Assembly: GCF_050320075.1 (NCBI RefSeq)
Contig: NZ_CP190018.1
Direction: 5' to 3' (one strand)
Source of the DNA: Escherichia coli
GTDB taxonomy: Bacteria; Pseudomonadota; Gammaproteobacteria; Enterobacterales; Enterobacteriaceae
DNA: 64,000 nt
Both the position numbers and the translations under genes were made by a program. The stretch's first letter is position 1; every line of letters starts with the position of its first letter. The notes beneath the pieces were generated by a model. It had not been told where the DNA came from. It made no database searches and saw only the letters and a list, made by a program, of their open reading frames with translations. Shown in pieces: positions 18,617 to 33,293 of this stretch.

Positions 18617-18648
18617 GATTGATAATTGTTATCGTTTGCATTATCGTT
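18617..18648. promoter_or_regulatory. Candidate Fur box(es) in the cirA promoter
   Basis: gattgataattgttatcgtttgcattatcg resembles the GATAATGATAATCATTATC iron box; cirA is a classical Fur target. Confidence 0.55.
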
Positions 18649-25238: not shown

Positions 25239-25254
25239 CTGTAACCGTTTCCAT
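25239..25254. promoter_or_regulatory. Candidate GalR/GalS operator upstream of galS
   Basis: cTGtAAcCGtTTcCAt fits the gal operator pattern TGnAAnCGnTTnCA. Confidence 0.5.
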
Positions 25255-25257
25255 TGC

Positions 25258-25273
25258 TGTGACTCGATTCACG
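25258..25273. promoter_or_regulatory. Candidate CRP site upstream of galS
   Basis: tgtga ctcgat tcacg, near-consensus TGTGA-N6-TCACA. Confidence 0.45.
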
Positions 25274-25349: not shown

Positions 25350-26390
25350 ATGATCACCATTCGTGATGTAGCGCGTCAGGCTGGCGTCTCTGTGGCAACG
25401 GTTTCCCGAGTGCTCAATAACAGTACGCTGGTCAGTGCCGACACGCGTGAAGCAGTAATGAAAGCCGTTAGTGAGCTGGATTATCGACCAAATGCCAATG
25501 CCCAGGCGCTGGCAACTCAGGTTAGCGACACCATTGGCGTGGTGGTGATGGACGTTTCTGATGCGTTTTTCGGCGCGCTGGTAAAAGCGGTGGATCTGGT
25601 CGCCCAGCAGCATCAGAAATACGTGCTAATCGGCAATAGCTATCATGAAGCGGAAAAAGAGCGTCACGCCATTGAGGTGTTAATTCGCCAGCGTTGTAAT
25701 GCATTGATTGTTCACTCAAAAGCATTGAGTGACGATGAACTGGCACAATTTATGGATAACATTCCCGGTATGGTGTTAATCAACCGCGTTGTGCCGGGGT
25801 ACGCCCATCGTTGCGTTTGCCTGGATAATCTCAGCGGTGCCCGAATGGCGACGCGCATGTTGCTGAATAACGGTCATCAACGTATTGGTTATCTTTCTTC
25901 CAGTCACGGCATTGAAGATGACGCCATGCGTAAAGCAGGCTGGATGAGTGCGTTGAAAGAGCAGGATATTATTCCGCCGGAAAGCTGGATTGGCACTGGC
26001 ACGCCGGACATGCCGGGCGGTGAGGCGGCGATGGTTGAACTGCTGGGGCGCAATCTACAACTTACCGCTGTATTTGCTTATAACGACAATATGGCCGCTG
26101 GCGCACTGACAGCATTAAAAGATAATGGCATTGCGATTCCGTTACATCTCTCAATCATCGGTTTCGATGATATTCCCATCGCCCGTTACACCGACCCGCA
26201 ATTAACGACTGTGCGTTATCCCATTGCTTCAATGGCGAAATTAGCCACCGAACTGGCCTTGCAGGGGGCAGCAGGCAATATTGATCCGCGTGCCAGCCAC
26301 TGTTTTATGCCGACGTTAGTGCGTCGCCATTCTGTCGCAACGCGCCAGAATGCGGCGGCGATCACTAACTCAACAAATCAGGCGATGTAA
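25350..26390 (+). CDS. galS: Galactose isorepressor GalS (LacI family)
   Basis: [24 protein letters not shown]... HTH; the listed ORF starts two codons upstream (MNM...). Confidence 0.92.
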
Positions 26391-26400
26391 CCGCTTTCAA
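26385..26400. promoter_or_regulatory. Candidate GalR/GalS operator of the mgl promoter, overlapping the galS stop codon
   Basis: aTGtAAcCGcTTtCAa fits TGnAAnCGnTTnCA; sits directly upstream of the CRP site. Confidence 0.55.
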
Positions 26401-26402
26401 TC

Positions 26403-26418
26403 TGTGAGTGATTTCACA
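26403..26418. promoter_or_regulatory. Candidate CRP site of the mgl promoter
   Basis: tgtga gtgatt tcaca, perfect TGTGA-N6-TCACA. Confidence 0.6.
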
Positions 26419-26669
26419 GTATCTTAACAATGTGATAGCTATGATTGCACCGTTTTAACGTTGTAACCCGTATGTAACAGTGAATAATCACTTTCACCGA
26501 GGTAATAGCGTCATAACAACAATTAAAGCCGTTTTCTGGAGCGTTACCGGGCATGGAAGAACGAATTTTAAAAAGTGAGCTTCGGCGTTCAGTAACACTT
26601 CATTAACTCTACTGCCCCGCCGAGCATTTATCTCAAGCACTACCCTGCATAAGAAAAACCGGAGATACC

Positions 26670-27668
26670 ATGAATAAGAAGGTGTTAACCCTGTCTGCTG
26701 TGATGGCCAGCATGTTATTCGGTGCCGCTGCACACGCTGCTGATACTCGCATTGGTGTAACAATCTATAAGTACGACGATAACTTTATGTCTGTAGTGCG
26801 CAAGGCTATTGAGCAAGATGCGAAAGCCGCGCCAGATGTTCAGCTGCTGATGAATGATTCTCAGAATGACCAGTCCAAGCAGAACGATCAGATCGACGTA
26901 TTGCTGGCGAAAGGGGTGAAGGCACTGGCAATCAACCTGGTTGACCCGGCAGCTGCGGGTACGGTGATTGAGAAAGCGCGTGGGCAAAACGTGCCGGTGG
27001 TTTTCTTCAACAAAGAACCGTCTCGTAAGGCGCTGGATAGCTACGACAAAGCCTACTACGTTGGCACTGACTCCAAAGAGTCCGGCATTATTCAGGGCGA
27101 TTTGATTGCTAAACACTGGGCGGCGAATCAGGGTTGGGATCTGAACAAAGACGGTCAGATTCAGTTCGTACTGCTGAAAGGTGAGCCGGGCCATCCGGAT
27201 GCAGAAGCACGTACCACTTACGTGATTAAAGAATTGAACGACAAAGGCATCAAAACTGAACAGTTACAGTTAGATACCGCTATGTGGGATACCGCTCAGG
27301 CGAAAGATAAGATGGACGCCTGGCTGTCTGGCCCGAACGCCAACAAAATCGAAGTGGTTATCGCCAACAACGATGCGATGGCAATGGGCGCGGTAGAAGC
27401 TCTGAAAGCACACAACAAGTCCAGCATTCCGGTGTTTGGCGTCGATGCGCTGCCAGAAGCGCTGGCGCTGGTGAAATCCGGTGCACTGGCGGGCACCGTA
27501 CTGAACGATGCTAACAACCAGGCTAAAGCGACCTTTGATTTGGCGAAAAACCTGGCCGATGGCAAAGGTGCGGCTGATGGCACCAACTGGAAAATCGACA
27601 ACAAAGTGGTCCGCGTACCTTATGTTGGCGTAGATAAAGACAACCTGGCTGAATTCAGCAAGAAATAA
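26670..27668 (+). CDS. mglB: Galactose/glucose-binding periplasmic protein MglB
   Basis: 332-aa ORF with signal peptide [23 protein letters not shown]. Confidence 0.95.
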
Positions 27669-27728
27669 GACTGATTGGGCGCAGTCGTTTACTGCGCCCT
27701 TATTGTATGGCCAACAAGGTAAAATTAT

Positions 27729-29249
27729 ATGGTCAGCTCAACGACTCCGTCTTCCGGGGAATACTTGTTGGAAATGAGCGGTATCAACAAGTCTTTTCCT
27801 GGTGTTAAGGCACTTGATAACGTTAATTTAAAAGTCCGGCCACATTCTATCCATGCATTAATGGGGGAAAACGGCGCAGGAAAATCAACATTATTAAAAT
27901 GCCTGTTTGGTATTTATCAAAAAGACTCCGGCACCATTTTATTCCAGGGTAAAGAGATCGATTTCCATTCTGCCAAAGAAGCGCTGGAAAATGGTATTTC
28001 GATGGTACACCAGGAGTTAAACCTGGTATTACAACGTTCGGTGATGGATAACATGTGGCTGGGGCGATATCCCACCAAAGGCATGTTTGTCGATCAGGAC
28101 AAAATGTACCGCGAAACCAAAGCGATTTTTGATGAACTGGATATTGATATCGATCCGCGTGCGCGCGTCGGCACATTATCCGTTTCGCAAATGCAGATGA
28201 TCGAAATCGCCAAAGCGTTTTCCTATAACGCGAAAATTGTGATTATGGATGAACCGACTTCTTCGTTAACCGAAAAAGAGGTCAATCATCTGTTCACTAT
28301 TATTCGTAAATTAAAAGAGCGCGGCTGCGGTATTGTTTATATCTCACATAAAATGGAAGAAATCTTCCAGTTATGTGATGAAGTTACCGTATTGCGCGAC
28401 GGTCAGTGGATCGCCACTGAACCGCTGGCAGGACTGACGATGGACAAGATCATCGCCATGATGGTTGGGCGTTCTCTTAACCAGCGTTTCCCTGACAAAG
28501 AAAACAAGCCGGGCGAAGTGATTCTTGAAGTGCGTAACCTGACGTCGCTGCGCCAGCCGTCGATTCGCGATGTCTCGTTTGATCTGCATAAAGGGGAGAT
28601 CCTCGGTATTGCCGGTCTGGTGGGGGCGAAACGTACCGATATTGTTGAGACGTTATTTGGTATTCGCGAGAAATCGGCTGGCACCATTACGTTGCACGGC
28701 AAAAAGATCAATAACCATAATGCCAACGAAGCCATAAACCACGGATTTGCACTGGTAACTGAAGAGCGCCGCTCAACGGGAATTTATGCCTATCTGGATA
28801 TCGGTTTTAACTCGTTAATTTCCAATATTCGCAACTACAAAAATAAAGTTGGTTTACTGGATAACTCGCGGATGAAAAGTGATACCCAGTGGGTGATTGA
28901 TTCGATGCGGGTAAAAACACCGGGGCATCGGACGCAAATTGGTTCGCTCTCCGGTGGTAATCAGCAAAAGGTGATTATTGGTCGCTGGCTGTTAACGCAA
29001 CCAGAAATATTAATGCTCGATGAACCGACGCGCGGTATTGATGTCGGGGCGAAGTTTGAGATCTATCAGTTAATTGCCGAGCTGGCGAAGAAAGGCAAGG
29101 GGATTATTATTATCTCCTCCGAAATGCCAGAGTTGTTAGGGATAACAGACCGTATTCTGGTCATGAGTAATGGTCTCGTTTCCGGAATTGTCGATACAAA
29201 AACAACAACGCAAAACGAAATTCTGCGTCTTGCGTCTTTGCACCTTTAA
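27729..29249 (+). CDS. mglA: Galactose ABC transporter ATPase MglA (two ABC domains)
   Basis: 506-aa ORF; Walker [10 protein letters not shown]. Confidence 0.95.
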
Positions 29250-29264
29250 GATTAGGGGCTTCCC

Positions 29265-30275
29265 ATGAGTGCGTTAAATAAGAAAAGTTTTCTTACTTAC
29301 CTGAAAGAGGGCGGTATTTACGTCGTTCTTTTAGTTTTGCTGGCAATTATTATTTTCCAGGATCCTACATTTTTAAGTCTGTTGAACTTAAGTAATATTC
29401 TCACCCAGTCATCGGTGCGTATTATTATCGCGCTTGGTGTGGCAGGGTTAATTGTCACCCAGGGGACCGACCTTTCTGCGGGGCGTCAAGTAGGGCTGGC
29501 GGCAGTGGTGGCAGCGACATTATTGCAGTCCATGGATAACGCCAACAAAGTGTTCCCGGAAATGGCGACGATGCCGATTGCGCTGGTTATTCTGATTGTC
29601 TGTGCCATTGGTGCGGTGATCGGTTTGATCAACGGTCTGATTATCGCCTATCTCAACGTGACGCCGTTCATTACCACGCTCGGCACGATGATCATCGTCT
29701 ATGGCATCAACTCGCTCTATTACGACTTTGTCGGGGCGTCGCCGATTTCTGGTTTCGACAGTGGCTTCTCTACCTTTGCTCAGGGCTTTGTCGCGCTGGG
29801 GAGTTTCCGTCTCTCTTACATCACCTTCTACGCGCTGATTGCGGTGGCGTTCGTCTGGGTGTTGTGGAACAAAACCCGCTTCGGCAAGAACATTTTTGCT
29901 ATCGGCGGTAACCCGGAAGCGGCAAAAGTTTCTGGTGTCAACGTCGGCCTGAACCTGCTGATGATCTACGCGTTGTCTGGTGTGTTCTATGCCTTCGGCG
30001 GGATGTTAGAAGCCGGACGTATCGGCTCTGCCACCAACAACCTCGGCTTTATGTATGAACTGGATGCTATCGCGGCGTGCGTGGTGGGCGGCGTATCGTT
30101 CAGCGGCGGTGTGGGGACGGTGATTGGCGTGGTGACCGGGGTAATTATTTTTACCGTCATCAACTATGGCCTGACGTACATCGGTGTAAACCCGTACTGG
30201 CAGTACATCATCAAAGGGGCGATTATTATCTTCGCCGTGGCGCTGGATTCACTGAAATACGCGCGTAAGAAGTGA
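29265..30275 (+). CDS. mglC: Galactose ABC transporter permease MglC
   Basis: 336-aa multi-TM ORF. Confidence 0.93.
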   Translation: MSALNKKSFLTYLKEGGIYVVLLVLLAIIIFQDPTFLSLLNLSNILTQSSVRIIIALGVAGLIVTQGTDLSAGRQVGLAAVVAATLLQSMDNANKVFPEMATMPIALVILIVCAIGAVIGLINGLIIAYLNVTPFITTLGTMIIVYGINSLYYDFVGASPISGFDSGFSTFAQGFVALGSFRLSYITFYALIAVAFVWVLWNKTRFGKNIFAIGGNPEAAKVSGVNVGLNLLMIYALSGVFYAFGGMLEAGRIGSATNNLGFMYELDAIAACVVGGVSFSGGVGTVIGVVTGVIIFTVINYGLTYIGVNPYWQYIIKGAIIIFAVALDSLKYARKK

Positions 30276-33045: not shown

Positions 33046-33293
33046 AATTATTTAGAGTATAAATATTGCGTGCTGATATTAAGGCTATGCGCGTGGGGAA
33101 ATTTAAACTGTGAAAGGATTCACAAATAGCTGTGGTTCAGAATGTTATATCCGCAGCTTATTGAGTGAAGTAATAATTATTCTCAATAATTAACAGAAAA
33201 GAGAAAATATTAACGATAGAAAATAAGATAAACAATCAGGTAATGGTGCCAACTTACTGATTTAGTGTATGATGGTGTTTTTGAGGTGCTCCC

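Follow-up and report, generated by a model that had tools for sequence, protein, structure and literature searches.

The mgl operator and its adjacent CRP site at the 3′ end of galS in Escherichia coli

A sequence element at the end of galS, found in a stretch of 64,000 nucleotides of Escherichia coli DNA that was analysed as a whole and is here called the window, was identified with very high confidence as the known E. coli mglBAC promoter module, in which a gal-type operator lies directly upstream of a CRP site predicted to occupy a class II position. The mgl operator, its location at the end of galS and the adjacent CRP site have been known since the early 1990s, and the sites are routinely used for interpreting mutations that arise during evolution in chemostats; the original DNase footprint work on the mgl region is reportedly that of Hogg et al. 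in 1991 and of Weickert & Adhya in 1993. The comparative addition made here to this known element is that galS has its stop codon inside the operator only in the E. coli lineage and in one unrelated genome.

Operator and CRP site at the end of galS

The window was shown to carry the gene order folE-yeiB-galS-mglB-mglA-mglC of the E. coli chromosome, both by its sequence and by an identical annotated RefSeq record. According to this annotation and the list of ORFs, galS (25350–26390, plus strand) encodes the Gal isorepressor, a protein of 346 aa from the LacI/GalR family, and is followed on the same strand by mglB (26670–27668), mglA (27729–29249) and mglC (29265–30275), which form the regulated operon of an ABC transporter for galactose and glucose (26670–30275). 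The 601 bases surrounding the operator site were found in 5,425 of 5,426 complete E. coli genomes, and the 80 bases surrounding it are identical in K-12 MG1655 and W3110 derivatives, so that published results from K-12 are directly applicable to the window.

The mgl operator (O_mgl or mglO), a GalS/GalR site with the sequence ATGTAACCGCTTTCAA, spans positions 26385–26400 without strand assignment. Read directly in the window, this 16-mer (aTGtAAcCGcTTtCAa) contains the galS stop codon TAA at 26388–26390, and a gap of 2 bp (tc, 26401–26402) separates it from a CRP core, TGTGAGTGATTTCACA (TGTGAgtgattTCACA), that consists of a perfect TGTGA-gtgatt-TCACA at 26403–26418, likewise without strand. 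Both parts of what the earlier note had described, a gal-operator-like sequence across the galS stop and a perfect CRP site 2 bp away from it, are thus present. When the CRP site is taken at its full length of 22 bp (26400–26421), it overlaps the operator 16-mer by 1 bp, which agrees with a published remark that repressor and activator binding partially overlap at mglB (PMC2516365). Perfect TGTGA-N6-TCACA sequences occur twice in the 64-kb window compared to 0.06 expected, and a count of two was reached in none of 100 shuffles. In addition to this count, the CRP site is supported by its conservation and by an adaptive mutation at 26410 (see below), and the mglB CRP site is called confirmed in the Reg-Seq preprint. 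The other perfect copy in the window, TGTGAAAGGATTCACA at 33109–33124, was placed between yeiS and preT by aligning the gene order with that of an annotated E. coli record. It lies about 300 bp ahead of the start of preT, a minus-strand gene, and may be a CRP site for preTA.

The consensus of the gal operator is a 16-bp hyphenated dyad, GTGNAANC.GNTTNCAC, with a central CG, in which positions 3, 5, 9 and 15 are genetically essential (PMC5110547, for the positions quoting Weickert & Adhya 1993 and Adhya & Miller 1979). The mgl operator, written as ATGTAACC.GCTTTCAA, agrees with this consensus at 10 of the 12 specified positions, including the four essential ones and the central CG, and deviates at the outer positions 1 and 16. 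A degenerate gal-operator pattern with at most one mismatch found two sites in the window, the mgl operator and the operator of the galS promoter; this count by itself is not significant (0.62 expected; two or more in 13 of 100 shuffles). Together with the deviations at positions 1 and 16, it leaves room for a reading in which the 3′ end of galS resembles an operator by chance and the CRP site alone is real.

Since the degenerate pattern was by itself statistically uncompelling, a log-odds matrix was built from 16 published GalR sites inferred from ChIP (PMC5110547, Table 3), and three sites that lie in the window were left out. The mgl operator (26386–26400) ranked second among 127,972 scored positions with 16.7 bits, compared to 14.5–21.6 bits for the training sites, and it was placed between two known galS operators. 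The first rank was taken by the operator of the galS promoter (25240–25254; 21.5 bits) and the third by the internal galS operator (25392–25406; 15.3 bits), whereas the fourth-ranked position in the window scored 13.3 bits. A fortuitous resemblance to an operator is also contradicted by the near-invariance of the site in 80 species, in 76 of which it is non-coding, and by a GalR ChIP-chip peak and operator-constitutive mutations at this site, and its probability is practically negligible.

The two galS operators are features of their own. At the galS promoter (25239–25273, no strand), which was recognized by the pattern, the matrix and ChIP, the operator cTGTAACCGTTTCCAt (25239–25254) is followed after a 3-bp gap by the CRP site TGTGActcgatTCACg (25258–25273), and the site inferred there from GalR ChIP is ATGGAAACGGTTACA (PMC5110547). 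The internal operator, GTGGCAACGGTTTCCC (25392–25407, no strand), is located in the 5′ coding region of galS and corresponds to OI(galS) of the same study, where it also figures among the sites inferred from ChIP. Besides, a sequence elsewhere in the window, TTGTTATCGTTTGCAT (18626–18641), is identical to the GalR 3C site 'F13' of PMC5110547; it scored 13.0 bits with the GalR matrix and lies about 125 bp inside lysP, as judged from collinearity with the annotated record.

Published occupancy data and genetics place repressor binding at the same position. ChIP-chip of GalR in MG1655 gave a peak at 2240625 with a binding score of 9.5, an inferred site TTGAAAGCGGTTACA and an assignment to mglB (PMC5110547). 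This inferred site is the reverse complement of window positions 26386–26400; the protein in this experiment was GalR, not GalS. In glucose-limited chemostats, an operator mutation that sweeps the population was reported as G→T, 3 bp beyond the end of galS/mglD in the repressor binding site, and it results in semi-constitutive mglBAC transcription (PMC2763269). Similarly, the operator change C→A at MG1655 position 2,238,647 passed 90% in all three further chemostats, and a second adaptive mutation at 2,238,630 was assigned to the CRP activator site (PMC7863352). With the galS end at 2,238,650 set to window position 26390, the former maps to 26393, which is the G of the central CG and the critical operator position 9, and the latter to 26410, within the spacer of the CRP site; both bases are G on the window strand, matching the published C→A on the opposite strand. 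The GalR ChIP-chip site, the mutation of G26393 and the second rank in the matrix scan support the proposal of the earlier note that the mgl operator lies here and that galS terminates within it, and neither the published GalR ChIP-chip data nor the operator genetics place repressor binding at a different position, the observation named there as one that would speak against it.

The labelling of the mgl operator in the literature is inconsistent. Table 1 of PMC5110547 labels the 26385–26400 site 'OE (galS)', and this table as well as the in silico table list 2240618–2240633 under galS/b2151, yet the ChIP table of the same study gives mglB. Taken literally, the former label would make the site a distal operator that serves galS, not mgl, by looping to the galS promoter operators, which would also be in line with the 3C contacts reported among GalR operators (PMC5110547). 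A role in galS control instead of mgl control is very improbable: the galS promoter is 1.1 kb away, whereas the CRP site of mgl follows after 2 bp and the mgl start after about 60 bp, mutation of the site derepresses mglBAC (PMC2763269), and the 'OE (galS)' label is probably an automatic assignment to the overlapped gene. Looping may still be an additional role of the site. The 'O (mglB)' of Table 1 is a different sequence inside mglB (PMC5110547). This sequence, GTGCACCGGATTTCAC, is present in the window as its reverse complement GTGAAATCCGGTGCAC at 27471–27486 within the mglB coding region, and it has no central CG.

Position relative to the mglB promoter and leader

A TATGAT hexamer at 26441–26446 (plus strand), about 30 bp downstream of the CRP site, is at least 95% conserved in all six columns among 80 species and is the predicted −10 element of the mglB promoter. 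On this basis, the mglB transcription start is predicted near 26452–26454 (approximately 26453, ±2 bp). Counted from this predicted start, the centre of the CRP site (26410.5) lies at −41.5 to −43.5, or about −41.5 to −42.5 for a start near 26453, and the centre of the mgl operator (26392.5) at about −60.5 (±2 bp). The spacing between the predicted −10 hexamer and the centre of the CRP site fits a class II promoter, and we infer that the mglB CRP site occupies a class II position with respect to this start. One mutation at +30 of mglBp was reported to create a consensus −10 (PMC13228646), and an AATAAT at 26483–26488 fits this remark, which supports a start at about 26453.

The predicted 5′ untranslated leader of mglBAC extends over approximately 217 nt (26453–26669, plus strand; start ±2), compared to the 'about 250 bp' given in the literature (PMC3119520). 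A latent sigma-70-like promoter, TTGTAA-16-AATAAT, is present inside it (26461–26488); the change A→T at 26483 alone would yield TATAAT, matching the mutation near +30 reported to create a new start (PMC13228646; Reg-Seq preprint). A TGTAAC-N6-TGTAAC direct repeat was seen at 26462–26479. Further downstream, the leader contains strongly conserved blocks, GGAGCGTTACC...CACGGAAGA at about 26537–26565 and GTGAGCTTCGGCG..CAGTAAC at about 26572–26597. No Rfam match was obtained in the window between 25000 and 27000, and the mglB leader folded no better than shuffled sequences (z = −0.2). The GGA-rich motifs and the conservation of the leader suggest a post-transcriptional or protein-binding role. 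An ORF of 17 codons in the leader (26553–26606; MEERILKSELRRSVTLH) was considered as well; most other Enterobacteriaceae have ACG in place of this ATG, and a conserved leader peptide is therefore improbable.

Conservation of the module and origin of the stop codon overlap

The module was compared at 80 galS loci of Enterobacteriaceae, one per species, with 81–99% GalS identity, from genera including Escherichia, Citrobacter, Salmonella, Enterobacter, Klebsiella, Raoultella, Kosakonia, Kluyvera, Trabulsiella, Atlantibacter and Franconibacter. All 80 loci (82 of 82 sequences scanned) carried an operator, followed after exactly 2 bp by a TGTGA-N6-TCACA. Over the 82 sequences, the gap was shown to be invariant in length and variable in sequence (TC, TA, TT or TG), and variation of the operator across the 80 loci is limited to position 10 (C/T) and position 13 (T/C). 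In the column profile of the 80 species, columns of at least 95% identity make up the operator, the CRP half-sites and the TATGAT at 26441–26446, whereas the final galS codons upstream of the operator are poorly conserved. At the galS promoter, the 3-bp gap between operator and CRP site is likewise invariant (80/80 loci). Outside this set, Yersinia pestis has been reported to lack galS and to have an mglBAC regulatory region and promoter highly similar to those of E. coli (PMC3119520); that comparison refers to the whole mglBAC region, without mention of the operator-CRP module as such.

Within E. coli, the 34-mer formed by operator, gap and CRP core (26385–26418) was identical in 5,401 of 5,426 complete genomes, whereas the 80 bases around the operator were identical in just 3,507. 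Four sampled E. coli variants had changes only among the tail codons of galS and in the stretch from the CRP site to the −10 element. The chemostat allele G26393T was absent from all 5,426 genomes; about 24 of them had no exact copy of the 34-mer, and the allele was not among these.

The overlap with the stop codon showed a different distribution. In the window, the galS stop TAA (26388–26390, plus strand; sequence and ORF list) is supplied by the operator half-site TGTAAC. Counted by the first in-frame stop of galS, only 4 of the 80 loci have the stop inside the operator, and these belong to two E. coli representatives, Escherichia sp. MOD1-EC7003 and one unrelated Enterobacteriaceae genome. 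The remaining 76 loci encode a GalS of 340–341 aa (...ITN* or ...ITNL*) that ends 8–12 nt upstream of the operator. Comparison of the loci showed that the E. coli lineage carries a C-terminal extension of six codons, TCA ACA AAT CAG GCG ATG (STNQAM; 26370–26387, plus strand), and these tail codons vary even among E. coli. The TCA of E. coli replaces the stop (TGA or TAA) of most relatives; AAC-TGA is found in the nearest relatives, E. whittamii and Escherichia sp. E1V33, versus AAC-TCA in E. coli. From this comparison of loci it can be concluded that the ancestral galS stop (TGA after ...ITN) was lost by a single G→C change that turned TGA into TCA, and that the reading frame now continues through six extra codons until it meets the TAA of the operator half-site TGTAAC. 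The overlap of stop and operator is then a by-product of a lost stop and not a conserved design, and the constrained element is the regulatory module. The 'very compact arrangement' of the earlier note is thus a true description of the window sequence, but not of a design kept across the 80 loci.

No intrinsic terminator was detected on the plus strand in the interval that separates galS from mglB (26390–26670), which means that transcription of galS must cross the operator. A terminator-like hairpin on the minus strand (26394–26382) has a stem of 5 bp, has no minus-strand gene upstream and is part of the operator dyad, and it was regarded as a chance structure. GalS or GalR bound at O_mgl could conceivably act as a roadblock of the lacI/O3 type that stops RNA polymerase at the end of galS. 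Truncated non-stop galS mRNAs would then be formed, their product would be tmRNA-tagged and degraded, so that GalS would limit its own level, and mglBAC would be insulated from galS read-through as well. This would be a second autoregulatory loop of GalS, like that of LacI at lac O3, and the loss of the ancestral stop in E. coli would make every roadblocked galS transcript a non-stop message. The geometry of O_mgl would match that of lac, where the stop codon of lacI lies within O3, next to the CAP site, and where a repressor gene of the LacI/GalR family likewise ends in an operator of the neighbouring operon under its control. LacI at O3 has been described to roadblock lacI, and the shortened transcript leads to SsrA tagging and proteolysis (PMC3711431, citing Abo et al. 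2000). RNA polymerase halts some 15–20 nt ahead of a roadblock, so that a roadblock at O_mgl would act equally in species in which the galS stop is 8–12 nt upstream.

However, at the weak lac O3 a roadblock forms only if tetrameric LacI also holds O1 in a loop, whereas O_mgl is a lone operator, with the nearest other operators about 1 kb away (25239–25254 and 25392–25407). The presence of the overlap at only 4 of the 80 loci also makes selection for it unlikely, and galS is already autoregulated via its own promoter operators. With a lone O_mgl, separate operators for galS and an overlap that is not conserved, the roadblock was judged to be unlikely, and a literature search gave no report of a GalS roadblock on galS.

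Predicted repression and comparison with known systems

The preferred reading, in which the element is the operator-CRP module of the mglBAC promoter, agrees with the literature, according to which CRP activates and GalS/GalR repress mglBAC, GalR is bound at the site and mutations in the operator derepress the operon (PMC5110547, PMC2763269, PMC7863352). In vitro and without regulators, only galR and galETKM were transcribed and mglBAC was not (PMC4073488), which indicates that mglBAC needs cAMP-CRP. In the proposed mechanism, cAMP-CRP would be required for activation of the mglB promoter. When galactose is absent, the operator at about −60.5 would be occupied by GalR or by GalS, which is the main repressor of mgl, and CRP-dependent initiation would be blocked, and galactose would free the repressor from the operator; the repressor is described to block open-complex formation at mgl, as paraphrased in PMC7863352. 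A repressor dimer whose centre lies about 18 bp upstream of that of the CRP site may sterically hinder CRP, or it may cover the DNA upstream of CRP where the C-terminal domain of the RNA polymerase alpha subunit would dock. One of these two modes is most likely, since the sites touch and the 2-bp gap is fixed. As each promoter keeps its own exact spacing (2 bp at mgl, 3 bp at galS), the rigid arrangement, which was seen in each of the 80 species, speaks for a stereospecific interplay of repressor, CRP and RNA polymerase and not for mere proximity.

The element in the window is the same as E. coli mglBp with mglO and its CRP site; the published ChIP site and mutations map to it base for base. 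A closely similar arrangement is known from galE P1, where the CRP site is located at −41.5. GalR bound at OE (−60.5) represses galE P1 by occupying the DNA on which the alpha C-terminal domain docks. As at mgl, where class II is a prediction, OE of galE at −60.5 (PMC5110547) is found directly upstream of a class II CRP site and is bound by the same repressors, with a spacing between the centres of operator and CRP site of 19 bp compared to 18 bp at mgl. Unlike mgl, which has a single operator, galE possesses a second operator, OI (+53.5), repression through GalR/HU looping, and a second promoter, P2. The galS promoter shares layout and regulators with mgl, except that its gap is 3 bp instead of 2 bp and that galS has an extra internal operator. 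With regard to a repressor gene that ends in the operator of the adjacent operon, the closest analogue is lacI with O3 and the CAP site (PMC3711431 for the roadblock and SsrA tagging). The lac O3, however, is a weak auxiliary operator that loops to O1 at a class I CRP promoter (−61.5), whereas O_mgl is the sole primary operator of a promoter predicted to be of class II.
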